Source of the DNA: Negaprion brevirostris
Lineage: Eukaryota
Assembly: GCA_030324005.1 (NCBI GenBank)
Contig: JARDVH010000154.1
Location: 30,268,212 to 30,332,211 of the forward strand
Direction of reading: 5' to 3'
Length of the DNA: 64,000 nucleotides
The notes below the pieces were generated by a model, which was not told where the DNA came from, did no database searches, and was given only the letters and a program-made list of their open reading frames with translations. Of the stretch, positions 6,926 to 64,000 are shown in pieces (positions within the stretch are counted from its first letter, which is position 1; each line of letters begins with the position of its first letter). The position numbers and the translations under genes are program-made.

Positions 6926-7410
6926 GAAATCTTCACACACAAGTTTGGCTTTTGTTCTGTGACATATAAAAGTTGCACAGATAAATCTGATTTTTGTTCC
7001 CTTTTAAATGGATCTTCATAGTTTTAATTTTTGGTCCATACTTTGTGATCTGTGAAACCAGATTAGTTAATTTTGGAGCTAAAGTAGTAACTAAATATGG
7101 CTAATTGAATTTACTTGAGGGTATTGCTGTCAGGTGGTTGTAGAGCAAGAACATTAAATTGCCAGTTTTTGCTGACTTGTCTTGGATCTCGTTTCCTAGT
7201 GTACTGATATTTTTAAACCTGTTGACATGCTATAGTTGTGTAGATTATTTTCTATTTCTACATTAGACTTGAATTATTTTCTGCTTAAGTATAATCTAAA
7301 AAAAATTAAAATTATTCAAGATAGCAAAATTTTCTTGCAAAATGTTACATAACTAAAAATAGAAAATGCTAGGTATACAGAGCAGGTCAGACAGTGTCTG
7401 TAACGGATTA

Positions 7411-7815
7411 TAGAATCCCTACAGTGCAGGAGGAGGCTATTCGACCTTTTGAGTCTGCACTTACCCACAATCCCATCCAAGCCCTATTCCCGTAATCCCA
7501 CATACATACCCTACTAATCCCATGACGGTCAATTTAGCATGGCCAGTCAACCTAAACTGTACATTTTTGGACTGTGGGAGGAAACCCATGCAGACACGGG
7601 GGAGAATGTGCAAACTCCAAGCAGACAGTGAACTGAATTGGAATTGAACTCTAGTCCCTTGGCACTGTGAGGCAGCAGTGCTAACCACTGTGCCACTGTA
7701 CTGCCCTGGAGTCCCTTGGTGCTGTGAGGCAGCAGTGCTAACCACTGTACTGCCCTGGAGTCCCTTGGTGCTGTGAGGCAGCAGTGCTAACCACTGTGCC
7801 ACTGTACTGCCCTGG
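7411..7815 (-). mobile_element. HE1-type V-SINE with triplicated tRNA head
   Basis: Tail and V core as in other HE1 copies; head unit repeated three times at 7653-7815. Confidence 0.9.
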
Positions 7816-8527
7816 ATCTGGAAGATGCATCTGGAGGATTGAGCAGCAAGTACAGAACCAAAGGAGGAAAAAATAAAGGAAGGATGGGAGTAAGTGTAGG
7901 AAAGAAGGAAAGGAAAGATCTGTGTTAGGCGGAGGGCAGTGCTGATTAAATTAATGATTCTTAAGACTTGTGCCCAAAGGCTGTGGGGTGGTGGGGGAGG
8001 TGCGGGGGCAGGAGAGGTTGGAGTTGCAGAGCCCTTGCAAGAGAGCCTACTGCAGCATTAGCTCAGGGTGCAATAGTTGACCATCAAGTGTGTTATGGCC
8101 GGCGACATGCTTGGCTCCCACTTCCTGTTCTCTCCTAATCTTCTCCAGGCTCCTGCAGGTCTTCTGTCATGCTTCCTCCATATTCTGCTCTTTGTGTTCT
8201 GTCAAGGATAGACAGGGAGCACAATGAGAAGCTGACACCGTTTACCTGCAAGTCACTATCTATTTTCTTAAAAGCATTATTAAAAGAGCACATGCAGTGC
8301 TTTCGTATTGTGAGTATTATTGTATTATAATTTGGATGCGATTCTGTGGACACCAATTTGTTTGAAAAGAGGTCCTTCAATAAAAAAGGTTTCAGAATTT
8401 CTGGATTTATTGACCTTTAGTGGTGATGCTGCCAGGCAGAAAAGGTGGGTGATGGGTACAAGGAAAGAAACACAAGCTCGATCCAGAGAAGATAGCAACA
8501 GCAAGAGAATAATTACCAAGTCTTTAC

Positions 8528-9339: not shown

Positions 9340-10478
9340 GGATCTGTCATATGAAAAGTGCGAGAATCCATTATGGTGGTTGTCACTCAGTACTTAGAAA
9401 ATCATAATGTGAGCAGGCAGTCAAAATGGCTTTTTGAAAGAGGAATCATGCCTAAGTAATGGAATTGAGCTTTTCGACAAAGTAACATTCAAGATAGACA
9501 AAGGGAAGCCAGTGGATGTGGTATACTTGGATTTACAAAAAGCATTTACGAAGGTGCCACATCAAAGTTTATTACACAAGATAAGAGGCCATCCTTTAGG
9601 GGGTAATATATTATTATGGATAAGACTGGTTAGCTAACAGCAAGCAGAGACTAGGGATAAATGTCTTTTTTTCAGATTGGCAAGCTGTACTTCATGCCAT
9701 GACATAGGGCTCAGTGCTGCATCCTCAACATTTTATCTATTTCAATACCTTGAATGAAGAGACTGAATGTCTGGTAGCTAAGTTTGATGATGACACCAGA
9801 ATTAAGCTGTCAAGAGGGAGTACATAGGAACATAAGAACATGAGAAATAGGAGCAGGAGTAGGCCATCTAGCCCTTCGNNNNNNNNNNNNNNNNNNNNNN
9901 NNNNNNNNNNNNNNNNNNNNNNNNNNNNNNNNNNNNNNNNNNNNNNNNNNNNNNNNNNNNNNNNNNNNNNNNNNNNNNNNNNNNNNNNNNNNNNNNNNNN
10001 NNNNNNNNNNNNNNNNNNNNNNNNNNNNNNNNNNNNNNNNNNNNNNNNNNNNNNNNNNNNNNNNNNNNNNNNNNNNNNNNNNNNNNNNNNNNNNNNNNNN
10101 NNNNNNNNAATGTCTACAATTGTTGAGGCTCTGAATTTGACTTGATTTGATTGAATTGGAATAAAAACAAAAAAAATCTGTGTTCTGCTACCTGAATCTC
10201 TGTTATTATGCCGATGCAGTGGATGATTAGGAATGTTGGTATTTATTGCAAGAGGAATTCAATATAAAAAGGAAGTTTATTGCAGTTGTACAGTGCCTTG
10301 GTGATTCTGCACCTAGAGTACTGTGTACAGTTTTGGCTTCTTAATTTGAAAAATAATAGCTGCTTCAGAAATAGTTCAGAGAAGGTTCATTTGACTAATT
10401 TCTGGGCAGTCAGACTTACCTTATGAAGAACAGTTAAACAGGTTGGACTATACCCACTCCGTTTAGAAGAATGGGAGG
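9340..10478 (+). mobile_element. CR1 LINE RT fragment interrupted by younger insertions and a gap
   Basis: ORF 9434-9637 ..IDKGKPVDVVYLDLQKAFTKVPH.. is CR1 RT; resumes at ~10205 (LHLEYCVQFW). Confidence 0.85.
10109..10176 (+). mobile_element. 3' end of the U2-headed SINE-like family (second copy)
   Basis: aatgtc..aa.ttgttgag.ctctgaatt.gacttgatttgatt..ggaataaaaacaaaaaaaa matches 39807-39871; 5' part lies in an N gap. Confidence 0.85.
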
Positions 10479-20158: not shown

Positions 20159-20665
20159 GGGTGCTTAAAGGAAAGGTTAGATTAACTGACCCAGTTATGT
20201 TAAATGTGTCAAAGCATATAATGTTGCAAGCATGCAGAAATTAATTGAGGCACATCTAGATTTACACAGGCTAATTGAGTAGGCTGTATCCCATCAGTGA
20301 AGACTTGCTGGCAAATCAATAGAGCTACTTAATTATTTAAGTGAAATAATGAAAAGGTGAAAGCATGCAATATATTGTAAATGTTCAGTTATGAAATTTA
20401 ATTATAATAATTACACTTTTTCACTCTACCACAATAGCTTCAGTTAATTCTAAAAACTGTTTTGTCAGTACGATTTCATTTAAGTGCAAAGTTCCCAGTG
20501 GAAAGGCATTATATTTTCACCTTATTAAGGATGTTATGCTTGCTCATATTTCTTGTTCTTTGAAGGTCTGAACCTTCCTGTAGATGTATACTAAGATACA
20601 AAATTGCTAAGAGGTGTGTTTTGATTTGATCCGTTTTTAATAAAAGATACAGCACGTTCATCTTC
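20159..20665 (+). repeat. Source of ~506-bp local duplication (copy at 22327-22832)
   Basis: Near-identical direct repeat with about 7 visible substitutions outside the N gap. Confidence 0.95.
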
Positions 20666-22151: not shown

Positions 22152-22980
22152 GGGTGACACGGTGGCAAAGTGGTTGACACTGCTGCCTCATGAGCGCCAA
22201 GGATCCAGTTTCAGTTTCAGTTCCAGTCTTGGGTGATTGTGTGGAGTTTACTCATTCTCCCTGTGTCTGCGTGGATTTCTTCCAGGTGCTCTGGTTTCCT
22301 CCCACAGTCCAAAGATGTGCAAGTTAGGGTGCTTAAAGGAAAGGTTAGATTAACTGGCCCAGTTATGTTAAATGTGTCAAAGCATATAATGTTGCAAGCA
22401 TNNNNNNNNNNNNNNNNNNNNNNNNNNNNNNNNNNNNNNNNNNNNNNNNNNNNNNNNNNNNNNNNNNNNNNNNNNNNNNNNNNNNNNNNNNNNNNNNNNN
22501 NATTTAAGTGAAATAATGAAAAGGTGAAAGCATGCAATATATTGTAAATGTTCAGTTATGAAATTTAGTTATAATAATTACACTTTTTCACTCTACCACA
22601 ATAGCTTCAGTTAATTCTAAAAACTGTTTTGTTAGTACGATTTCATTTAAGTGCAAAGTGCCCAGTGGAAAGGCATTATATTTTCACCTTATTAAGGATG
22701 TTATGCTTGCTCATATTTCTTGTTCTTTGAAGGCCTGAACCTTCCTGTAGATGTATACTAAGATACAGAATTGCTAAGAGGTGTGTTTTGATTTGATCCG
22801 TTTTTAATAAAAGATACAGCTCGTTCATCTTCCCAGGAAGTGTAGGCTGGGAGGATTAGTGGGGTGAAAACATGGAGTTGTGGAGATAGGGCCTGGGTAA
22901 GATGCTCCGTTGAGTGTTGATNNNNNNNNNNGATGCAAATTCAATGGGCTGAATTTTCTGCACTGTAGGGATTTCAATGA
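22152..22980 (+). mobile_element. HE1-type V-SINE interrupted by duplicated unique DNA
   Basis: Head/V core 22152-22326; tail resumes at 22833 and ends ctgcactgtagggatttc. Confidence 0.8.
22327..22832 (+). repeat. Copy of 20159-20665
   Basis: Direct sequence comparison. Confidence 0.95.
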
Positions 22981-32974: not shown

Positions 32975-33530
32975 GGGTGGCTCGATGGCATAGTGATTAG
33001 CACTGTTGCTTCACCATGCCAGGAACCTGGGTTCGATTCCTGGCTTGAGTCACTGTCTGTGCAGAGTCTGCATGTTCTCCTGTGTCTGCATTGGTATCCC
33101 CCAGGTGCTCCGGTTTCTTTCCACAATCGGAAAGATGTGCTTGTTAGGTGCATTGGCTATGCTAAATTCTCCCTCAGTGTACCCGAAGAGGTCGTCAACA
33201 ACAACAACAACACACACAGCACGGGAAACAGGCCCTTCGGCCCAACGAGCCCGCGCCGCCGTCCCATTGTCTCAGTNNNNNNNNNNNNNNNNNNNNNNNN
33301 NNNNNNNNNNNNNNNNNNNNNNNNNNNNNNNNNNNNNNNNNNNNNNNNNNNNNNNNNNNNNNNNNNNNNNNNNNNNCACACCCCCACTACCCTTTGCGTG
33401 AAAAACTGCCCTCTAATATTTGTCTTATACCTAGCCCCCCTCACCCTAAGCTCATGTCCCCTCGTTCTATCCATTTCTAATAGCGGAAGTCTGCTGGCTA
33501 GGGATTTTCTCAGTAACTTCATTGTAGTGT
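32975..33530 (+). mobile_element. V-SINE (alternative-tail subfamily) with nested minus-strand CR1 3' end at ~33205-33480
   Basis: A/B-box head (gggttcgattcc), V core, tail resumes gctagggattttctcagtaacttcattg after the CR1 piece. Confidence 0.8.
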
Positions 33531-36110: not shown

Positions 36111-36474
36111 CGTAAATGTTGACCTCATGATTTTTGACCTAAGAAAGTGAAATTTTTCATATATCTCGCAACAGTCAATCTTAGTTTTGTCAGGGACCAT
36201 AGTCCAAAGATTTCACAATCAAAGGCTGTGTGGGTTTTGGAAGAGAAGCCTTTGCTTCATATGCTTGGGCTATGATTGGAAAGAGAAGTGAAACCAACTA
36301 TTATTTCTCAAAACAGGTAAAGATAGCCAAAAGGTAATCCTAGTTGACATAAAAATTACAAATATAATCACAATGATGGTTTTGTAGTTGAAATTATAAA
36401 TGGTGATGTGCTTTTTTATGATGGAGAGAAACATTGCACAATGCAAGAACAGGAAATGGATTCACTGACATAAA

Positions 36475-36790
36475 TAGAATTCCTCCAGTACAGAAGGAGG
36501 CCATTAGACCCCCTAAGTCTGTACTGACAATAATCCCATCCAAGCTGTCTCCTCATACCCCCACATATTTACCCTGCTAGTACCCCTGACACCAAGGGTC
36601 AATTTAGTATGGCTAATCAACCCAACCTGCACATCTTTGGCATGTGGGAGGAAACCAGAGCACCTGGAGGAAATCCACACAGACACAATGTGTAAACTCC
36701 AAGCGGACAGTCACCCAAGGCTGTAATTGAATTTGGGTCCCTGGTGCTGTGAGGCAGCAGTGCTAACAGCTGCATCACTGTCCTGCCCAC
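36475..36790 (-). mobile_element. HE1-type V-SINE
   Basis: Tail, V core and head as in 2297-2634. Confidence 0.9.
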
Positions 36791-37756: not shown

Positions 37757-39560
37757 GTAATTTTTTTTTCAGACTGAATTACTATCCCTCTTTGTCATCA
37801 GTGCACCAATATAAAAGGCTTATTTTCCTTCTCTGTTTAGCGTTCATTCTGCTGCTTGATATTCATTACCTTTTTTTCTTAGTAAAGTTATTTAAATTGC
37901 ATCTGTCCTGAGTGTTAATTGTTGTCCATTAGGAAGTAAATGCTGAGAAGAGACTGTTGTTTGTGTTTCTTAAAAATTCAAATCCAATCAATATCAACTT
38001 CTAGTATTGTCCAAGAGTTGATTTTACCCGTTTGTTGGGCACTTGCACTTGCTGCTGAAAATAAATACAAAACCATTCACGAGTGCTACTAATAATTGAG
38101 AAATATTATGTTAATCTGTACAGCAACCTAGTCTGAGCCCCTTCACAATGCACCCAAATACGTAATACAAGTCAATGACTTAAATAGCATACCATTTATT
38201 GTAGTATTTGTCTTGTACAGATTAAATATGCACCCAGTTGTCTAAAATGCTATTCTGTGAATTGGCTTGCACCTAAATCAGTAATTAAAAATGTGCTTAT
38301 AAATTGCTTGGCTAATCCTACAAATCAAATTATGTCATTTTGCTGTCTAGAAATTAGCATATATTTCTCTAAAATAGATGAGCATCTAAGGTAAGTAATC
38401 TGTTCTGTCACAGCTCAGCAAACTACTGCCGAGTGTATATTTCTGACTTAGATCTGTGGTAGTAAAGTGCTAGGCTGTCCCATTTGCTTTGTTTGGCTGG
38501 TTGAGTGGATAAAAGATTTGTACGACTCTTATATATAGTTGGATTAGTACTGTTGAAAGTTTAATTTTCTTTGCAAAAAGTCCTTTTCACAGCTTAGACC
38601 TTGTTTGGTCTAAAATTCAAAAGTATTTCAGTGATGGTGGGCAAATTGCTGTTACATTTATAAATTGACTACCATAGCTTATATTCATTTATAATAATGA
38701 ATTCTAATTTTTCGATCGCCGGGATAATACTGTCAGGTTTGACCATAAAAACCTGCATGTTGAGAAAGGTTTGTGCTTAGTACTTTCTAAGCCCAACCTT
38801 AACAGATGTTTATAAAGTAAAGCCTCTGGTAGTGGTTTTGGTACGAGCCAATTCCTAGATTTCTGTACATCCGATGTTTGGATTAAAAACTTCTTTTAAA
38901 ACTATTATATTAGATCTAACAAAATGTTAAAATATTTTGTACGCTCACTCTTCAACTTGATTGTTGAGTGGTGGCAAATAAAGCTCTCTTCCCTCTCCGG
39001 ATTCCCCTGGGAAAATTAAGCACTCTAGTATGGTTTGTTAAATTTCAGTTTAAAGGGTTGTTAATTACATTGATTCCAACCCTTTGAGACACAATTCAGC
39101 AAAGCCTGAATTTATTACTTGATATAGCCTCATGAAAAGAACAGAATTGTAGTGATTTACTGCTTCAATGATTTGTTCTATTTATACATTCATTTATGTC
39201 AACTTGTTCTGTAGAAAGCTACTCAATGTGGAACCACATGCATGGGCAGGCATGCACATATATGAATATGTACACCCACCCCAACTCGCCCATGTTGTAC
39301 AAAATCTTCGCAACTTCAGCTAATGACTACAATGTGTTTTTCTATTCGCCACCTCCGCACAAACCCCCCCCCCCCGCCCAAACCCCCTCCTACTGCCATC
39401 ATAAGAAACAAAAGGAACTTAATTATATCGTTTAAAAGATGTCAGGTTACAAAAAAAAGTAAATCCTTGGCTAATACATCAATAAATCCGTCCAAAAGGT
39501 AAATGCAAATGTTTTCTTTTCTGCCCTGTTCTTTTTGTACAAAGTTAAATCTAGCTGTAT

Positions 39561-39871
39561 ATTCGCTTCTCGGCCTTTTGGCTAAGACCAAGTGTAGTGT
39601 CAACATGCTGTGCTTGGTTGAAGTCATTAGATTACATTTCAGCTTCATTTGAAGCAATTTTTAAAAGTGGCATCTCGGCCTTTTGCCTAAGATGCAAATG
39701 AGATCAAGCCTTGGAGGAGGTGCCGTGCCTACTCCAATTAGTTTGGATCATGTAGATCAAGCCCAAGACAGGAGATCAGAATCCTGCCTTGTCAGCTTGG
39801 ATCGGGAATGTCTCAACTTGTTGAGACTCTGAATTGGACTTGATTTGATTGGAATAAAAACAAAAAAAAAA
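39561..39871 (+). mobile_element. U2 snRNA-headed SINE-like retroelement
   Basis: 39561-39598 matches U2 nt 1-37 (one insertion, one substitution); ~250-bp non-U2 body; AATAAA + A-tail; second 3' copy at 10109-10176. Confidence 0.8.
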
Positions 39872-40193
39872 GTTGTAGCATTTTAAATTGTTACTTTTAT
39901 GAAACATTAGCCCATTCTGTGCTTTTTTGACTTCTACTTTTAGTATGGTAAATGATGATGTGGTAAAATGGATTCTTCAATTGTTTCAATTTGAGTAAAA
40001 TAGTGATCAGTTTGCAGATATTGCATCTGCACAATATTAAATCTTCACTATATAAAACAAACCTGTGGTGAGTGCTGATAATATTCTAAGCTGTGAGAAT
40101 GGCTTCTGTTTGGTTCACTGTAGCTTTCTGGCCTCTGCACTCTAAGGCAAGATCTTTACCCACCAGACCCTCTGAGCGAATAATTATAATTGA

Positions 40194-40325
<132 letters not shown>

Positions 40326-45106: not shown

Positions 45107-45259
<153 letters not shown>

Positions 45260-45669: not shown

Positions 45670-48600
45670 CATTGTCGAACTGTGGGCTTCACTGGCAAGG
45701 CAAATTCCTCGTTCCTTAGTTGCCCACGAGAAAGGACTATTGAGCATCTTCCTGAACTGCTGCATCTTTCATGAATAAAGTCCTTGCACAGTGCTATCAG
45801 GTAAGAAATTTGACTCAGCACTGATGAAGGACTGGTAATATAGGCGCACATGGGATTTCTGTGCGACCTGATTTAAGAACTTGGAGTTGGTTTTCCCATG
45901 CACCCTACTGCCCTGGGTGGTGGATGCTGCTGGCTTAGGATGTATTCTTGGGCACTAAGATGTGCCTTAATCTGTGCTGTGTTAGCTTATCTCAACAAAT
46001 TGACTTTTGGTAGTACGGTTCTTTCAATTGGTTTCCATACCACTGGATTTTGGAGGTGCGAAGAGGTGGTGGCTCCTGTTTTTGATTTTTATATATTCTT
46101 TATGTGGGCATTGTTGCCTTTCCCTAATTGCCCTCAAGAAGGTAGTTCTTAAACTGTTACTGTAGTTACATCCCTGGTGCTGTTAGGGCGGGAGTTACAG
46201 CATTTTCACTCAGCAAGAGAAGGAACGGCGTTTAGATACGTGGAGAGAAACTTGCAGGTGATGGTATTCTCATGTGTTTGTTGCCCTTGTCACTGCTGAC
46301 TAGTGGTGTGCCTCAGGGGTCGGTGCTGGGACCACAGCTTTTCATAATAAACATGACCGATTTGGAAGAAGGAACTGAAGACACTATTGCTAAGTTTTCA
46401 GATGATACAAAGATATGTAGAGGGACAGGTAGTATTGAGGAAGCAGGGAGACTACAAAAGGACTTGGACAGGTTAGGAGAGTGGGCAAGGAAGTGCCAGA
46501 TGGACTACAGTGTGGAAAAGTGAGAGGTTATGCACTTTGGAAGGAGGAATTGAGGTATAAACTATTTCCTCAATGGGGAAGTACTTAGGAAATCAGAAGC
46601 ACAAAGGGACTTGGGAGTTCTTGTTCAAGATTCTCAAAGTTAACATGCAGTTTCAGTCAGCAGTTAGGAAGGCAAATGCAGTATTAGCATTCATGTGGAA
46701 ACGGCTAGAATACAAGAGCAAGGATGTACTTCTGAGACTGTATAAGGCTGTGGTCTGACCCCGTTTGGAGTATTGTGAGCAATTAAGGATGGATGTGCTG
46801 GCCTTGGAAAGAGTCCAGAGGAGGTTCACAAGAATGATCCTTGGAATGAAGACCTTGTTGTCTGAGGAATGGTTGAGGACTCTGAGTCTGTACTCGTTGG
46901 ACTTTAGAAGGATGAGGGGGGGATCTTACTGAAACTGACAAGGTATTGTGAGGCTTGGATAGAGTGGATGTGGCGAGGATGTTTCCACTAGTAGGAAAAG
47001 CTAGAACCAGAGGGCACAACCTCAGGCTAAAGGGACGATCATTTAAAACAGAGATGAGGAGGAATTTCTTCAGCTAGAGGGTGGTGAATCTGTGGAACGC
47101 TTTGTTGCAAAAGGCTAAGGAGGCCAGGTCATTGAGTATCTTTAACTCCTAGATAGATAGGTTCTTGATAAGGCGATCAGGGGATATGGGGGAAAGGCAG
47201 GAGAATGGAGCTGAGAAAAATATCAGCCATGATTGAATGGCGGAGCAGACTCAATGGGCCTAGGGGCCTAATTCTGCCCCCATGTCTTATGGTCTCTTTG
47301 AGGTCATTGGTTTGGAAAAGCTATTAAAGGAGGTGTGACAAGTTGTTGCAATGCGTCTTGTAGATGGTAGTGTGTTGACACGTGGTAGTGAAGAGAGTGA
47401 CCGTTTAAGGTGGTGAACGGAGTGCCAATCAAAAGGGCTGCTTCGTTCTGGATGGTCTTTAGCTTCTAAAGTGTTTTTGGAGCAGCACTCATCAGGCACC
47501 AACTCTTGACCAATGCCTTTAGATGATGGACAGGAAATCAGGAGGTGAGCTACTCCCTGCAGGGTTTCTAGCTTTTGATTGACTCTTGTAGTCACAGTAT
47601 TTATATGGCTGGTCCAGTTCAATTTCTGATCAATGGTAGCCCCCTAGGATGTTGAGAGTGGGGGATTCAGCAGTGGTAATAGAATTGAATGTTAAGTGGT
47701 GATGGTTAGANNNNNNNNNNNNNNNNNNNNNNNNNNNNNNNNNNNNNNNNNNNNNNNNNNNNNNNNNNNNNNNNNNNNNNNNNNNNNNNNNNNNNNNNNN
47801 NNNNNNNNNNNNNNNNNNNNNNNNNNNNNNNNNNNNNNNNNNNNNNNNNNNNNNNNNNNNNNNNNNNNNNNNNNNNNNNNNNNNNNNNNNNNNNNNNNNN
47901 NNNNNNNNNNNNNNNNNNNNNNNNNNNNNNNNNNNNNNNNNNNNNNNNNNNNNNNNNNNNNNNNNNNNNNNNNNNNNNNNNNNNNNNNNNNNNNNNNNNN
48001 NNNNNNNNNNNNNNNNNNNNNNNNNNNNNNNNNNNNNNNNNNNNNNNNNNNNNNNNNNNNNNNNNNNNNNNNNNNNNNNNNNNNNNNNNNNNNNNNNNNN
48101 NNNNNNNNNNNNNNNNNNNNNNNNNNNNNNNNNNNNNNNNNNNNNNNNNNNNNNNNNNNNNNNNNNNNNNNNNNNNNNNNNNNNNNNNNNNNNNNNNNNN
48201 NNNNNNNNNNNNNNNNNNNNNNNNNNNNNNNNNNNNNNNNNNNNNNNNNNNNNNNNNNNNNNNNNNNNNNNNNNNNNNNNNNNNNNNNNNNNNNNNNNNN
48301 NNNNNNNNNNNNNNNNNNNNNNNNNNNNNNNNNNNNNNNNNNNNNNNNNNNNNNNNNNNNNNNNNNNNNNNNNNNNNNNNNNNNNNNNNNNNNNNNNNNN
48401 NNNNNNNNNNNNNNNNNNNNNNNNNNNNNNNNNNNNNNNNNNNNNNNNNNNNNNNNNNNNNNNNNNNNNNNNNGATCTTATTGAATGGTGGGGCAGGCTC
48501 GAAGGGCTAGATGGCCTACTCCTCCTATTTCTTATGTTCTTATGTTCACCTCCACAAGAGCTGGGTGTGGCCACTCCAACCAATACAGTCATGGATTGAT

Positions 48601-49186: not shown

Positions 49187-49510
49187 TAGATTCCCAACAG
49201 TGTAGAAGAGACCATAGGCCCCTCGAGTCTGTACTGAGTCTCTGGCAGAGTATCTTACCCAGTCTCACCCCCTGCCCTATTCCAGTAACCCAACACATTT
49301 ACCATGGTTAATCCATCTAACCTATACATCTTGGGACAGTAAGGGGCAATTTAGCACAGCCAGTCCACCTAATCCGCACATCTTTGGACTGTGGGAGGAA
49401 GTGGGAGCACCTGGAGGAAACCCATGCAGACATGAGAATGTGCAAACACCATCCAGTCACCTAAAGCCAGAATTAATCCCACGTCCCTGGAGCTGAGAGG
49501 CAGCAGTGTT
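49187..49510 (-). mobile_element. HE1-type V-SINE
   Basis: Tail, V core, head. Confidence 0.88.
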
Positions 49511-50011
49511 TGTCACCTGTCAACCCTTGTGATTTTGTGCTGCAGGGCCATGTTTACAAAGCAGCATACAAACCATTATCAATCCGATCTCTAGTTGCAG
49601 CATTGATTACTTTGGATATGTTTTGCACATTGGCAAGCAGTAATAGATATTGTGAAGGTGATAGCAGTGATCAACCATGATTGTTGTTTTACAGCGTAGT
49701 TCAAAAATTGAATTTTGCCCCAAAAGCATGGACATTTTCTTGTGTTGTACAATTGTCTGCTTGGCACTAATATCTCAAAATATACTCATAGCTTTACTGC
49801 CATTAGTGGAGTGGAACATTCTAATGTTTTGCAGTCTTCTAGACTGCTGAAATATGCATGCATTTTTCATCGTTTTCCGGCACTTAGCTGTTGATTGGTG
49901 CATGTAATGGTTTACCTCAGCACAAAATTCTTCAACCTGATCAAACAGCTGGTTAAAAATAAAGCTAGGTGTGTTTTTTGAAATGGAGGGGAAATTCAAA
50001 TGTGGAAGTAT

Positions 50012-50295
50012 TATCCCCTGGCACTAAGGGGTAAACTAGCATGGCCTATCAACCTAACCTGCACATCTTTAAACTGTGGGAGGAAACCAGAATACTCGGA
50101 GGAAACCCACACAGACGTGGGAAGAATGTGCAAACTCCACACAGGCAGTGACCCAAGCTGGGAAACGAACCCAGGTCCCTGGAGCTATGAGGGGTAAATA
50201 TGAGAGGTTATGGGAATAGGGCCTGAATGGGATTGTGGTCAGTGCAGACTCGATGGGCCAAATGGCCTCCTTCTGACTGTAGGAATTCCATGATT
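50012..50295. mobile_element. HE1-type SINE with inverted 5' portion
   Basis: 50012-50192 is the head/V core on minus; 50191-50295 is the tail on plus. Confidence 0.75.
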
Positions 50296-50609: not shown

Positions 50610-50890
50610 GAATCCCCACAGTGCAGAAGGAGACCATTTGACCATTCAAGTCTGCATTGACAGTATCTTACTCAGGCCTACCACTCTGCCCTATCTAATG
50701 GCTAATCCACCTAACCTAAACATCTTGGGAAACTAAAGGACTATTTACCGTACCCAGTTAATCTAACCTACACATCTTTGGATTATGGGAGGAAACCCAT
50801 GGGGACACGGGGAAAATGTGCATATGCCACACAGTCACCTAAGGGTGGAATTGAACCCAGGTCCCTGGCGCTGAGAGGCAGCAGTGCTGG
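50610..50890 (-). mobile_element. HE1-type V-SINE
   Basis: Tail, V core, head (ttgaacccaggtccctgg). Confidence 0.85.
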
Positions 50891-52100: not shown

Positions 52101-53499
52101 TAGAAAGCAAGCAGAATGCAGATGAGCGTAGGTGAGAAATAGCTTAGATACACCACTGAGCCATAACTGCACCTGTTTTTACAGCATTTAGGTAGGAGCT
52201 TTTTGTAGGTTTCAGATTGTGCTGAATTTTTATTCTGATCAGATTGAGGAATTCAATGCTAAAGCCAGCCTACCACCTCTGAGAAGCCAATTGCAACATC
52301 AAAATGTTCCTGGGACAAATATGGATAACCACATATGTTTGCAAGTATTATGCTTAATGTGAAGCTCAGAACTGCTTAGAATTGTAAGCCTGTCCACTTC
52401 TTGCACACCTTAGATTTTGAGATTACTTTAAAAAGCAGGCAGTCAGATCTAAGTCGATCTAGATACTTGGGTGTGCCATACTGGTTTCAGAATAGACCGC
52501 TGTAACTGTTGGAAGGGGAGAGAGAGGTACAATAGGTTGGCTTGATTTGAATCTTGGCCACGTTTTTAAAAAAACACTGCAGTAACCCTTATATAAACCA
52601 GCCATCTGGAAAAATTGTTTCATTAGAAGTAATTGAAAATATAATTCAATAGCATCATGATAATGGACCAAGGAACCTTTTCTCTTTTAATTTTCATGTC
52701 TTTTTAATATTTCTAATAGATTACTGTTACAATAAAGTTTTCTTTTAAAGGCATGTCGCGGTAAAGATCGATACATGATTGATGTACTGGCTGGATCCTC
52801 TCTTAGACTAATGGTTTGAGGCCAAGACTATAGGGAGAGGCTCCAGCAGTATTGAACGAAAGTGATAGAAAGCATTCCATGGCCAATGTCAGAAAAATTG
52901 CAGTTGTAGTAGTGATTGAATTCAGGGGATGGCTGTGAGAGATTGAAGATGCAGGTACTGAAAATTTCCTATAATATCCCCAATGTTATCTGTAAAGATA
53001 TGCAAGAAATTCCTTTGAAATTGTGGTGAGGCCATTATCACAAATAATTAAAAGCCTTAACTGTAAAGGTAGACCTAATTGCACCTGTAAACCACTTGGA
53101 TCTACCTATGCATTTCTGCTATTCTTGTGATTGGTTCGTGCAGCCAGCTGGTTCCCTATCTGTGTGGCTTGACTGTGTAATCTGTTTGCCACCCAGGTGA
53201 AAATTCTGTCTGACGTGTTCGTTCTCACTGATTCGCAATACACACTTGCAATGAAGCTCCACTGTAGAAACTGCTGTGATATAAAAGATAGTCATCAAAG
53301 CTCCAGATGAGCATAGGCTGCAGTCCCCTTTGAAGGGGAGAGTTGACTAGTAGTGATTTAACCTGATGATCACCACAGCTAAATATTTGTCCAAATCATA
53401 CATTTTTGAAAACAAGTAACTGTTATTCCCAAATATCTGACCATTTCTCAGAAAATTAGAGAAAGTTATATTGTGTGCTGCTGAGAAATGTTCTACAGT

Positions 53500-54110
53500 G
53501 AAAATGGTACAGCAGAGGAGGAGCCAATTAATCTCACTATGCTTGTGTCAGCTCTGTGTTAGAGCTGTTCACATAGTCCCATTCACCTGTGCCTTCCACA
53601 TAGCCCTGCAAGGTTTCCCCTTCAGATATTTATCCCAAGTTCCTTTCCAAAATGGTTAGTCAACCTGCTTTCATTACCCTTTGCAGGTGCTGCAGGCCAG
53701 ATTTTCCAAACTCTCTGCATGAAAAAAATTCTTATCTTGTCTCTGGTCCTTTTGTCAATTGCTATAAATCTGACTCTTCTGGTTACTGACCCTTCTGCTA
53801 TTGGAAGCAGTTTCTCCTCCTTTATTCTAGCAAAACTCTTCATCAGTTTGAATCTATTATGTGTTCTTCATTTTTTTTTGCTCTAAGGAGAGCAGCTCCA
53901 AATTTTCAGACTCTTCACATAACTGATGTTGCATATCCTTGCTACATGTGAGGCTTATCTCCTGTCCATCAAGATACTTGCATCCTTCCTGAAGTGTTGT
54001 GCCTGGAATTGTACCAAAACATTACTCCTAACCAGTGATTATAAAAGGTGAGAACAGTTTCTTTGCTTTTGGATTCTATGTCTCTGCTTACAAAGGCAAG
54101 TATCTTTATC
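53500..54110 (-). mobile_element. Old CR1 3' fragment
   Basis: Minus ORF remnant EKLLPIAEGSVTR...FFMQRVW. Confidence 0.7.
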
Positions 54111-60007: not shown

Positions 60008-60265
60008 GCACAGTGGTGAGCACAGTTTTGATTCCCAGCTTGGGTCACCATCTGTGCAGAGTCTGCACGATCTTCCTATGTCTGCGTGGTTTCGTCTGGG
60101 TCCTCTTGTTTCCTCCCGCAGTCCGAAAGGCATGCTGATTAGGTGCATTGACCATTCTAAATTCTCCCTCCGCGTACGCTAACAGGCGCCACAATGTGGC
60201 GACTAGGGGATTTTCATAGTAACTTTATTGGTGTGTTAATATAGGTCTACTTGTGACACTAATAA
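60008..60265 (+). mobile_element. V-SINE, alternative-tail subfamily
   Basis: V core followed by tgtggcgactaggggattttc...ctacttgtgacactaataa. Confidence 0.8.
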
Positions 60266-60749
60266 CTACCCAGGATAGGTAGTGCACTCTTTGAGACTCT
60301 TGTTCCTGATTGCAAAATGCACCATCAACCACCTCCTAATTATAGCATTGTCTATAACTACAAGTTTGTTGAACGATACTTTCATATTACTTCTTCTATT
60401 GCTGGAATTAACAGTTTGGAGATAGCCTCAAGCTGTTGTGTACCTAAAACTACAAATAAGATTAAATTACAGAAACCAGGTATCTTCAGTGTCTGCACCA
60501 ACTGCTCTGTTTTTTTTTGTTTTAACGCTTCAGTACAAACCGTTTTTTTAAGCTGGATGTTTTGTTATGTATGGAACAGATAAAATCTTAAGAAATAGCT
60601 GTGCACAAGTTTGAGATTTTAAGACTTTTTAAAATACCTGTGGTATAGTTAAACAATTCTCTACCATGGTTTGGAGAAATACCTTACTAACAAAGAGGTG
60701 CCAGTCAGGGCCAATCATAAGTACACCCTTGAGTGAGGAGTAACTAACT

Positions 60750-60938
60750 CACCAAACCAGCATGTGTTTGGGACTATGGGAAGAAACCAAAGCACCTGGA
60801 GGAAACCCACACAGACACAGGGGGAATGTGCAGAGTCCACACAGTGACCCAAGCCGGGAATCGAACCCAGGTCTTTGGTGCTTTTTATTCCTACTTTTTG
60901 TTACTTCAATGTTTAGAGGTGGTTGCAGCTGTCCTGCA
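60750..60938 (+). repeat. Duplication of SINE fragment plus unique flank from 61737-61948
   Basis: Shared non-SINE flank tttttgttacttca.tgtttagaggtggttgcagctgtcctgca. Confidence 0.88.
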
Positions 60939-61610
60939 TCTTTCCCAGACTCCTATGGGAGCCAGCACTTTGTGTCTAATGTCACATGCTCAAAATTAAG
61001 ACAAAAGATTGGATGTGTGCTGATGGAGATAGTGGCAGTGAGAATGCAGTGGATTTATGGGCAGTGATTCAACATCACTGTGTAAATAGGGCTCAGACTT
61101 TCTGACTTGGATGTTGAACTTTTAATGATTAGGTCAGTTGAAAGCCTGTCAGTGGATTGTCGACGACTGTAATTATCTATTTGGAGCTTGTTTTAAAGTT
61201 AGAAGAACAGTTCTGAATATCAATGTGGTTTCGAAAGTCTTGACTCTTGGGGTCAGGCACAGGGTCTTCATGAATTATGAATGAAGGAAAAGTAAGCGTT
61301 AAGGAAAATGTCATGGTTGATACGTGACCCAGTTAATGATCTGAAGAATTATGTGAATCAGCTATCTCTTTTTCTTTGCTAGTAAGACAAACAGACTTCT
61401 GAAATCGGCTAATGAATTTTTAAACAACAATTCTTGCAGTGTTGCACTGTCATTTCCATCCCTAGTGTTGTACTCTGCTTGGAGCTACTGATAGAGGTGG
61501 TTTAGGAACCTTGTCAGTAAGTTTCATCAATGGGGACCAATTCCTATGGGTCTGTTAATTTACATTGAAGAATTGAATGAGTTAGTTCCTTAAAATAATC
61601 ATTAAAATTT

Positions 61611-61893
61611 CAAGTTTATTTATTAATCACAAGTAGGCTTACATAACACTGCAATGAAGTTACTGTGAAATTCCCCTAGTTGCCACACTTCGGCACCTGT
61701 TCATCTATGCTGAGGGAGAATTTAGCATGACCAATGCACCAAACCAGCACATCTTTGGGACTATGGGAAGAAACCAAAGCACCTGGAGGAAACCCACACA
61801 GACACGGGGGAATGTGCAAAGTCCACACAGTGGTCAAGCCAGGGATCGAACCCCGGTCCTTGGTGCTGTGAGGCAGCAGTGCTAACTGCTGTG
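61611..61893 (-). mobile_element. V-SINE, alternative-tail subfamily
   Basis: aagtttatttattaatcacaagtaggcttac...cccctagttgccacac tail, V core, tRNA head. Confidence 0.88.
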
Positions 61894-64000
61894 CTTTTTA
61901 TTACTTTTTGTTACTTCAGTGTTTAGAGGTGGTTGCAGCTGTCCTGCAACTGACGTGCTAAGAATATGCATCCACTGAGATGTACATTAAAACACAAATA
62001 TATTAATTTTAAAATGACAGCTCCCACAGTGGCTTGGTTCATTAAGTATCCAGCTATATTCAGCTCACACATGATTCATATTCAAGGCTTTATCTCCGTA
62101 TGTTGCAAGAAACCATTCCCTGATCTGCAAGACTTCAAAAAGTTCAACAAATTAAGTTGCAGTATAAATTGAACATAAAGGCTCTAGTGGAAAACAATAT
62201 TTGATGTAGTTTACAGTGTCTGCTTCATGATTCCACTGACACAATCAAATTTTGATGATTCACTTTTTGTAGAAACTGCATATCGATAGATTCTGCCAGC
62301 TGTTTTGTATGGGAGAATCATGGTAAATTCTGGAATCATGTTGGAATTCTGGAACAGAATCGCATCTTATAGCTGGATGTGAGGGGAGAATGGTGGGGAA
62401 CATAAATTTTGGATTGTCTACAGAAATCTGTTTGCCACTGGCTCTCTTTTCCTGATGAGTCTTATTTTGGTGTTTGCTATTTGTGCCCTAGCCTATCCAC
62501 TGTATTGATATCACCTATTTCTCTTTGTGATACTTGTCACTCCCTTGATAACTGTGCCAAATTTTGAAATTATGTCAAATGTTATTTTTGTTACAACAGT
62601 GACATTTTGAGATTTGGCACTGCAACAATACTAGTAATGACTATGTCCTCAATTGCTCTGTCTCTGCTTGACTGCCTCATATCTTGAGTTGTTGGAGTAT
62701 TGACCATCTGTCCTTAAGCTTCAGAATGACTGCCTTCCATTCAGCCCCAGTATGTCATGGGGCTTTTTGGCAAGCAATAATATCCTTTACTCAAACCAGG
62801 AATGATATTTTTCTTTAGTTAGATTGATCTTGCACCTTACTTTGAGACATGTTTTAACGAACCAGAATACTGATCACACTATCAATAATTTCATTTCCCA
62901 AATGGATAAGTTTCAGTACCTGTAGCTAGTTAATGGAGTGCTGTGCCTCAGAAGTTGTAGGGACAGAACAAGAACATCTTGTATCTGCTATTTATTGCCT
63001 CAGTCTATGCATTAGATTATCTGCTGAATGGGGTAAGTTTGAAAATGTCATGTTTCGAGATGGGCCACAATGTGTGAACTTAATACCGAATAAGCAGATT
63101 TTGAAGTGAAATTTTGAATGAAATTTGTGACCGAAGAAGATTTTGGTGAAATATATTGCTGACAGGAATGGGTATGCAGAGAAATGCACAGCATTGATGG
63201 CCAGATTTGTATGATAGGAGATGTAGGTTCAAAAATTAATGCAACTAGTCAACAACTATATCTAACATTAGTTAGGCTTGCTCTTGCCCATTTATTCTGT
63301 GATGTTTTATGCTGCAGTAATTGGAATTGAGATGGAAATGTTGGGGTGTGATCTGCAGTGTATCAGGCTTTCTGTACATACAGGGCAAGCAACCATTCAT
63401 ACTGAAGGATTCAGAAATTAACAGTGCAAGGTGTTAACAAGGAAATGTAGATTGGATTCAGTGTCAAGTCAGGTACAGAGAATAAAGACACCATTAGGTT
63501 TAGAGAGAGAGGAACAAAGCAGAAGAAATGTAAAAAGTTTTTAATTTCTTAAAATATTCTGATAACTATTAAAACTTTAAGGAATGAAATGCCATCTAGA
63601 TGTTGTTTGTGTAGTGCATTTTCCAACAGCAGCTTAATTCTTCTGCTTAATCTCACATTTTCTTTTGCTTGAATTTGATGTGTTGTTTGCACTTGTATAG
63701 CAGTGAGTGTCCTTTAGTATATAGTGTTTGATTGCTCTGCCTTACCGTAATAGACCTCCTCTACAATTTGCATGAACCACATCTTCACATAGGATTCATA
63801 ACACAAAACCCAAGAGGTGAGGTTTATTTATTGGGATGAGTTAGTTTTTGTCACTCGGTCTAAGTAGAGGGACAGTACATTGAAACCATTGAACCTAATA
63901 TAGTGTGTGTGTTTTGTTTAAGCTACTTCCCAATATTTAAATTGGAACCAGTTTGACTTGTAAGAATACTGAGTTTTATGGAAAATCCTTTGTTAGACCA

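Follow-up and report, generated by a model that had tools for sequence, protein, structure and literature searches.

A U2 snRNA-headed, A-tailed element in an elasmobranch GPATCH8 intron and its probable kinship with SINEU-type retroposons

The 64-kb stretch of genomic DNA analyzed here (the window) carries on its plus strand a non-coding unit of about 310 nt (39561–39871; copy 1) that opens with the 5' end of U2 snRNA, closes with AATAAA and an A-run, and lies inside an intron of GPATCH8. The question raised by this locus is whether a piece of a spliceosomal RNA was joined to a retroposon in a single accident, or whether it heads a mobile element in its own right. Based on the sequence comparisons and predicted RNA folds described below, we favor, with a probability of roughly 0.6, a SINEU-like non-autonomous retroposon of an elasmobranch, represented by one full-length copy, with a predicted self-masking U2 head and mobilized by a LINE of the L1/Tx1 type.

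The identity of the head is well defined. In an Rfam search, the only match in the window at E ≤ 1 is to U2; it begins at model position 1 of RF00004 and, when threaded over the model, spans 39562–39760 with 43.8 bits against a gathering score of 46. The segment corresponding to U2 nt 1–37 (39562–39598) carries nearly all of this signal, since it alone scores 35.9 bits (E 1.4e-6), which corroborates the U2 nt 1–37 head recognized in an earlier note on this DNA. In comparison with human U2, as printed in the portion of PMC4640811 S1 that was available, the head shows a single change over nt 2–37, U27C. The transition to the body had been described as abrupt, and identity does extend through nt 37; however, 39600–39601 agree with U2 nt 39–40, so that the head may reach nt 40 carrying A38G and the junction may fall anywhere between nt 37 and 40.

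At its 3' end, copy 1 can be read directly and is as previously described, with AATAAA (39853–39858) followed by AAC and ten adenines (39862–39871). The flanks contain the proposed short duplication as a 6/7 match, but 4.4% of 20,000 randomly drawn flank pairs match at least as well (P 0.044), and we retain it as a weak candidate for a target-site duplication. The longest stop-free frame inside copy 1 comprises 55 aa, with no homologue found. The coordinates of the element, its second copy, and the neighboring exons are collected in Table 1.

Table 1. Positions in the window of the element's parts, its second copy, and adjacent features.
Feature	Position	Strand	Basis
Assembly gap, 230 N	9879..10108	.	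Covers the 5' region of copy 2
Copy 2, 3' tail only	10109..10176	+	85% identical; 5' part in gap
TCTGT after the A-run of copy 2	10177..10181	+	Equals U2 nt 39–43; flank runs into old LINE fragment
Candidate 5' target-site duplication	39553..39559	+	6/7 identical to 39871–39877, chance P about 0.044
Outer U2 head	39561..39601	+	Rfam; human U2 in the available part of PMC4640811 S1
Head-masking hairpin	39586..39619	+	Predicted stem, strand test, simulation
5-bp hairpin and Sm-like AAU5	39642..39662	+	Predicted fold; general Sm consensus
Inner U2 fragment	39670..39695	+	21/23 identical to head; refolded as 9-pair stem
Hairpin unit A	39697..39752	+	Opens with AGATCAAG; predicted fold
Hairpin unit B	39752..39806	+	Homologous to unit A, shuffle p 0.0005
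3' tail common to copy 2	39807..39871	+	Alignment with copy 2; sequence of the 3' end
Candidate 3' copy of target-site duplication	39871..39877	+	6/7 identical to 39553–39559; random flank pairs
GPATCH8 coding exon	40237..40304	+	Protein matches
Next GPATCH8 exon	45107..45193	+	29/29 aa identical to Carcharodon and Stegostoma

The tail occurs a second time in the window. Copy 2 matches the tail of copy 1 at 58 of 68 positions with a 5-nt insertion (E 7e-17), and a 25-nt pattern common to both tails occurs twice in the window as compared to no occurrence in 100 shuffles. No similarity between the copies extends past the A-run. Starting eight bases into its right flank, copy 2 is bordered by sequence that aligns with LINE fragments elsewhere in the window; a reverse-transcriptase fragment is situated to its left (9413–9634), and the surrounding LINE is presumably CR1-like. 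Given this boundary and a flank that belongs to an old LINE fragment, copy 2 represents an independent insertion, and the previous report of the same 3' end at this second site thus holds as a separate event. It is important to note that copy 2 starts directly 3' of an assembly gap, so that its head is unreadable and copy 1 is the single readable copy (1 of 1) to show head and body joined. A repeat end that is 92% identical between 9828–9878 and 48500–48547 is located at or near assembly gaps, including the one before copy 2, and that gap may therefore conceal the rest of this repeat together with the 5' part of copy 2.

With regard to copy number, the assertion that the element belongs to a dispersed family is borne out in that the tail was inserted twice independently, but it rests on two tails and one readable head. 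An nhmmer search with the element across the window returned no third copy (next match, E 2.9). One extra copy in about 59.6 kb of called bases suggests a common repeat, for which an uncurated repeat-library entry is likely on the strength of this single observation (n = 1), and an entry in Repbase or Dfam may already be present. Blank searches of public protein sets for spurious translations argue weakly against a common repeat: for the 55-aa frame there were no candidates at near lengths and 0 of 32 longer ones at E ≤ 1, and the two matches to the 46-aa head-plus-body frame, each composed of many short stretches with 32–45% identity, were not accepted as copies. As a check for contamination, exact-motif scans of bacterial and archaeal genomes gave 0 and 0 matches, and a blastn comparison of the body with phage records gave none.

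The body had been considered non-U2, a description that does not hold for all of it. The stretch 39670–39692 is identical to the copy 1 head at 21 of 23 positions and corresponds approximately to U2 nt 4–26 (nt 7–26 by Rfam, at a weak 10.3 bits). The motif AGATCAAG, which is U2 nt 24–31, is found again at 39701 and 39754, where it marks the beginning of two homologous tandem units with a period of 53–54 nt. Both units are predicted to fold into long hairpins that have the base stem in common and differ in the upper stem. A predicted 5-bp hairpin (39642–39655) precedes a sequence resembling an Sm site, AAU5 (39656–39662), that is placed between two stems at about the position of the Sm site in U2; the Sm consensus normally has a 3' G, which is absent here. 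The 3' tail contributes a small predicted hairpin (39810–39827) and short TTGAT-like repeats.

Taken whole, copy 1 is predicted to fold more stably than any of 100 shuffles (z −3.7), as against z values of 0.2 to 1.2 for its two flanks. Folding of the minus strand is equally strong (z −3.85), and the whole-element fold alone is thus no sign of selection on the RNA. In the global predicted fold, 39697–39710 pair with 39836–39850. Alternative folds are allowed because four segments (39613–39619, 39742–39749, 39796–39803, and 39839–39846) are near-complementary to AGATCAAG. Several other interpretations of the body were tried and rejected: a full dimer of two long U2-headed monomers (similarity ends with the 23-mer, p 0.38), a snoRNA or other Rfam family (best E 8.6), a tandem array or satellite (neither locus contains a tandem repeat), and a conserved terminal hairpin at 39810–39827 (absent from the predicted fold of copy 2, z 0.44).

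In U2 snRNA, nt 25–39 hold the branch-point recognition sequence. In copy 1 these nucleotides (39586–39600) are predicted to pair without interruption, 15 of 15, with the first segment of the body (39605–39619), forming 9 Watson-Crick and 6 G-U pairs in a stem that can be extended to a 22-pair helix (39575–39630). No other uninterrupted stem with a loop of at most 10 nt is as long on either strand of the window, and the hairpin is specific to the sense strand (z −3.4 on the plus and +0.66 on the minus strand). Relative to a perfect inverted repeat of U2 nt 25–39, the 3' arm has changed at six positions (A to G at four, C to T at two), and the head contributes two departures of its own, U27C and A38G. 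All eight departures preserve pairing, with U27C and G39617 constituting a compensatory pair.

Random substitution retained the 15 pairs at P 0.0002–0.005 when 50–80% of the changes were transitions (400,000 trials) and at P 0.017–0.028 when all were, in a simulation that assumes the arm arose as an inverted duplicate and that was designed post hoc, after the data had been seen. The preservation of pairing at all eight changes suggests that head and body evolved as one RNA and would have formed one transcribed unit for some time; it constitutes the strongest argument here against a one-off chimera. Since the head shows one change in nt 2–37, the six changes in the partner arm probably predate the insertion of copy 1. 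Five of the eight changes in the hairpin are A to G on the sense strand, an excess that would be compatible with A-to-I editing of double-stranded RNA followed by reverse transcription.

Signals for the transcription of such a unit were sought against the commonly used consensus sequences. No pattern of an internal Pol III A or B box was found in the element, which contains three T4–5 runs, and the window holds no tRNA. The PSE that the earlier note envisaged for a master copy appears upstream of copy 1 at background level only (best match 10/15, equalled by 82% of background windows), and no 3' box pattern was found for copy 1. With A/B box and 3' box patterns not found and PSE-like sequence at background level, copy 1 is best regarded as a dispersed product, with transcription originating from a master located elsewhere. 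A start at U2 +1 fits the U2 promoter and fits equally a template jump onto U2 RNA. The octamer ATGCAAAT occurs at 39503–39511, 58 nt upstream of the head, and at 39692–39700, in each case followed by G; both were rejected as promoter signs and are probably due to chance, as ten octamers occur in the window.

An end composed of AATAAA and an A-run is typical of L1/Tx1 elements. No partner LINE with the tail of the element was found in the window, nor was an APE domain among its 119 stop-free stretches of at least 72 aa. Tx1 repeats have been reported in whale shark and Callorhinchus in the available text of PMC8455134. According to the accessible portions of the respective papers, Keno inserts 37 nt into U2, with the 3' flank TCTGTTCTT (PMC6136364), and Utopia uses the same target site (PMC4640811); the U2 site assigned to these elements in the earlier note agrees with this. 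Reptile Utopia families with weak specificity retain short U2-like flanks, and such short U2 matches also persist at off-target crocodilian insertions (same portion of PMC4640811).

The flanks of the two copies were compared with this target. In copy 2, the nucleotides directly after the A-run are TCTGT, which make up the 3' half of the U2 site used by Keno and Utopia; this 5-mer is present at 51 of 23,894 comparable positions (P 0.002 per site) and after 1 of 310 A-runs of at least five. Over nine bases the agreement with the Keno 3' target is 6/9 (P 0.019), weaker than the figure for the 5-mer. The 3' flank of copy 1 matches the canonical half-site at 3 of 9 positions in register; out of register, 39874–39884 agree with the U2 target motif at 8/11 positions (P 0.022), and U2 nt 38 onward, which had been anticipated downstream of a master copy, is absent there. 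Taken together, the flanks hint at, without proving, a Keno-related endonuclease behind the insertions. Where the head ends carries no diagnostic weight, because snRNA truncations concentrate in single-stranded segments anyway (available text of PMC4476161). A comparison of the tail with Utopia, likewise put forward earlier, was negative within the accessible part of PMC4640811: two tail motifs have 0 matches in S1, three reptile Utopia 3' ends compared by eye end without a long A-run, and that paper's Table 1 does not list Utopia for cartilaginous fish.

The host is indicated by GPATCH8, a coding exon of which follows copy 1 at a distance of about 365 nt in the same orientation. Its peptide is identical at 22 of 22 positions in 11 of 11 elasmobranch proteins and at 21 of 22 in 18 of 18 proteins from chimaeras (including Callorhinchus), teleosts, and tetrapods, among 29 named proteins chosen from 102 matches. 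The earlier attribution to a shark genome is thereby supported to the level of elasmobranchs. No GPATCH8 exon upstream of the copies appears among the tblastn matches listed, and both copies therefore probably lie, sense-oriented, in one long GPATCH8 intron. GPATCH8 is linked to branch-point quality control in splicing; the presence of a U2-like insert in its intron is probably a coincidence.

A simple model for the element starts from its architecture: the unit begins at U2 nt 1, contains nested U2 pieces and a duplicated hairpin, ends in AATAAA and an A-run, and its tail has been inserted at least twice independently. Such a structure would be assembled by the successive addition or duplication of U2 5' fragments on an A-tailed RNA, either by template jumps or by insertion at nt 37–38 of a U2 gene, or by both. 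The lack of an internal Pol III promoter together with the T4–5 runs suggests Pol II transcription of a master copy under the control of an external promoter; the simplest candidate, the PSE of U2, would place the 5' end at U2 +1. In the transcript, the first body segment is predicted to fold onto U2 nt 25–39 and bury the branch-point recognition sequence, so that competition of the element RNA with genuine U2 is not expected; the stem would have been maintained during the period in which the element was transcribed. Mobilization would be carried out by an L1/Tx1-clade LINE, probably a Keno relative with a relaxed preference for the U2 target, and integration would proceed by target-primed reverse transcription from the A-tail.

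This model preserves part of the origin advanced in the earlier note, in that the element is U2-headed, A-tailed, and SINEU-like, with TCTGT after copy 2 and the end of the head providing a hint of U2-targeting machinery. The derivation from a truncated Keno- or Utopia-like insertion fares less well, as additional pieces of the U2 5' end and a hairpin duplication make up part of the body, and only 3/9 positions in the flank of copy 1 agree with the target. A bolder formulation, which we consider speculative and unlikely, would posit an independently evolved elasmobranch SINEU family that depends, as a non-autonomous partner, on a Keno-like U2-targeting LINE, with a master copy residing in a U2 array under the U2 promoter and an evolved G-U-rich hairpin acting as a 'safety catch' that masks the branch-point sequence, perhaps shaped by A-to-I editing.

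The structural coupling of head and body bears most directly on a template-switch chimera, an alternative in which body and tail would constitute a separate family and the outer U2 head would have been gained in a single event, or sporadically, by a jump of the reverse transcriptase to U2 RNA. Chimeras of snRNAs and retroposons arise with several LINE clades, and the clustering of snRNA truncations in single-stranded segments would account for the end of the head (both from the available text of PMC4476161); 5' additions of U sequences are recurrent in SINEU-2 (available text of PMC4494074), and the single head observed is nearly pristine, with one change in nt 2–37. However, within its first 20 nt the body forms 15/15 pairs with the head in a G-U-rich, sense-only stem that includes both differences between head and U2, which would not be expected from a one-off jump unless the body already possessed an earlier copy of the same head. 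Moreover, the inner U2 fragment of the body would make the family U2-derived regardless. We regard a chimera as unlikely. The same fragments, together with the tandem duplication of the hairpin and the fact that no LINE sequence is recognized in the body, weigh against a second alternative, in which a Keno (Tx1) or Utopia LINE inserted at U2 nt 37/38 supplied the body of 270 nt as its 3' UTR and the copies are truncated ends or read-through products. Such an origin would explain a head ending at U2 nt 37–40, given the insertion of Keno 37 nt into U2 (accessible parts of PMC6136364 and PMC4640811), as well as the TCTGT after copy 2, and it is in line with the short matches retained at off-target crocodilian Utopia insertions (PMC4640811, same part) and with the L1/Tx1-like terminus of AATAAA and an A-run. 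But copy 1 has neither U2 nt 38 onward downstream nor a PSE upstream, and the Utopia data in the accessible part of PMC4640811 point away from that clade (no long A-run in three reptile ends and 0 matches to two tail motifs in S1; no listing for cartilaginous fish in that paper's Table 1). A LINE 3' UTR thus appears quite improbable.

Alternatively, the copies could descend by retroposition from a functional non-coding RNA, a U2 variant or decoy specific to the lineage, rather than from a selfish SINE. The threading of 39562–39760 over the whole U2 model at 43.8 bits (cut-off 46), the stem-flanked Sm-like AAU5 near the U2 position, and the strong predicted structure of the RNA are what such a variant would look like. 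Threading, however, gains only about 8 bits over the head alone, the body by itself scores only through its second copy of stem-loop I, and the Sm-like site has no 3' G. A branch-point recognition sequence that is predicted to be buried, an encoded A-tail, and PSE and 3' box patterns that were not found speak likewise against a working U2 variant, and we consider this origin very improbable.

The retroposon reading favored here is best compared with SINEU. The snRNA-headed SINEs of crocodilians, mentioned in the earlier note, are indeed described in PMC4494074, whose available text reports for SINEU U1/U2 heads, poly(A), repeated addition of 5' U pieces, and internal oligo-T; it proposes a Tx1-Mar partner and detects no SINEU outside crocodilians. 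Like SINEU-1 and SINEU-3, the present element is short (<500 bp) and non-coding, with a U2-derived 5' head, a unique body, a 3' poly(A), nested and recurrent U-derived segments, internal oligo-T, and no recognizable promoter; the same text gives the 5' U2 piece of SINEU-3 as 32 bp, and in combining U2 fragments with a duplicated hairpin the element is similar to SINEU-1, to which U heads were added repeatedly. Tx1-type mobilization is proposed in both cases. What makes SINEU a family, and not a collection of chimeras, is one structure present in many copies; one complete copy and one gap-cut tail are seen here, with the head-body hairpin as indirect support. The host of SINEU-1, -2, and -3 is crocodilian, in contrast to the elasmobranch host of the element, and this difference in host, rather than a sequence comparison of the bodies, sets the element apart from SINEU-1, -2, and -3. 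Within the available text of PMC4494074, SINEU targets Mariner-N4_AMi, whereas copy 1 is inserted in single-copy intron DNA and copy 2 in a LINE fragment with a U2-like half-site, and no head-masking hairpin is mentioned for SINEU.

Other systems are similar in single respects. With Keno, a U2-specific LINE of the Tx1 clade with an APE endonuclease, the element has in common a junction near U2 nt 37–38, an A-tailed end, and the TCTGT flank (in copy 2, 5/5 of TCTGTTCTT counted from U2 nt 39); it differs in being 310 nt long, non-coding, and outside U2 genes, with a non-canonical flank at copy 1. Utopia, a U2-targeting element of the NeSL clade, is alike in its target site and in the U2-like flanks left by weakly specific reptile families, and unlike in the 3' ends and taxonomic listing noted above for the accessible part of PMC4640811. 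The snRNA/LINE and snRNA/SINE chimeras and 3'-truncated snRNA pseudogenes in the available text of PMC4476161 likewise combine 5' snRNA with a retroposon 3' end, but they are independent events, whereas the head of the element is structurally coupled to a body that holds more U2 pieces. U2 snRNA itself (RF00004) matches in nt 1–37, which are nearly identical, and in an Sm-like run at a similar distance; unlike a U2 gene, the element falls below the gathering score, is not recognizably U2 in its 3' two thirds, is A-tailed, and has PSE-like sequence at background level and no 3' box pattern.

Among the papers listed by full-text literature searches, no title or beginning of an abstract describes an snRNA-headed SINE in sharks or rays. 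The terms 'snRNA', 'SINEU', and 'Tx1' are absent from the available text of PMC5499810, and no motif of the element occurs in 12 of the 24 supplementary files other than the repeat FASTA of the whale shark study PMC8455134; the repeat summary table of that study, as available, gives no SINE subclasses. If the elasmobranch family is real, snRNA-headed retroposons would have arisen again in a distant lineage, a second vertebrate origin that would allow the transcription and tolerance of such elements to be tested directly. The transcription of SINEU is described as an open question in the accessible text of PMC4494074 and PMC5786205. As for tolerance, a U2-headed RNA may be tolerated because its branch-point recognition sequence is predicted to be masked, an explanation that lends itself to testing.

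The window also contains other repeats. About ten copies of one repeat of 170–330 nt, 67–83% identical and in both orientations, are distributed over 2446–2636, 7407–7816, 22152–22335, 32975–33191, 36474–36788, and 49304–49516, with further sites at 50015–50295, 50698–50888, 60027–60268, 60750–60941, and 61617–61951; this repeat may be of the HE1/V-SINE type of sharks. Reverse-transcriptase (RVT_1) fragments are present at 9413–9634 and 46236–46520 and, together with many repeats of 65–80% identity, presumably represent decayed CR1 LINEs. Three two-copy pairs with 66–78% identity are unclassified (5952–6574/54234–54841, 221–579/57014–57389, and 48803–49105/55691–55973). A plus-strand segment, 53441–53656, gives a weak Pfam match to Transpos_assoc (E 0.0025, below the curated cut-off). 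Finally, 20159–20665 and 22327–22832 form a local duplication of 98% identity beside gaps, possibly an assembly artifact or a very young repeat.
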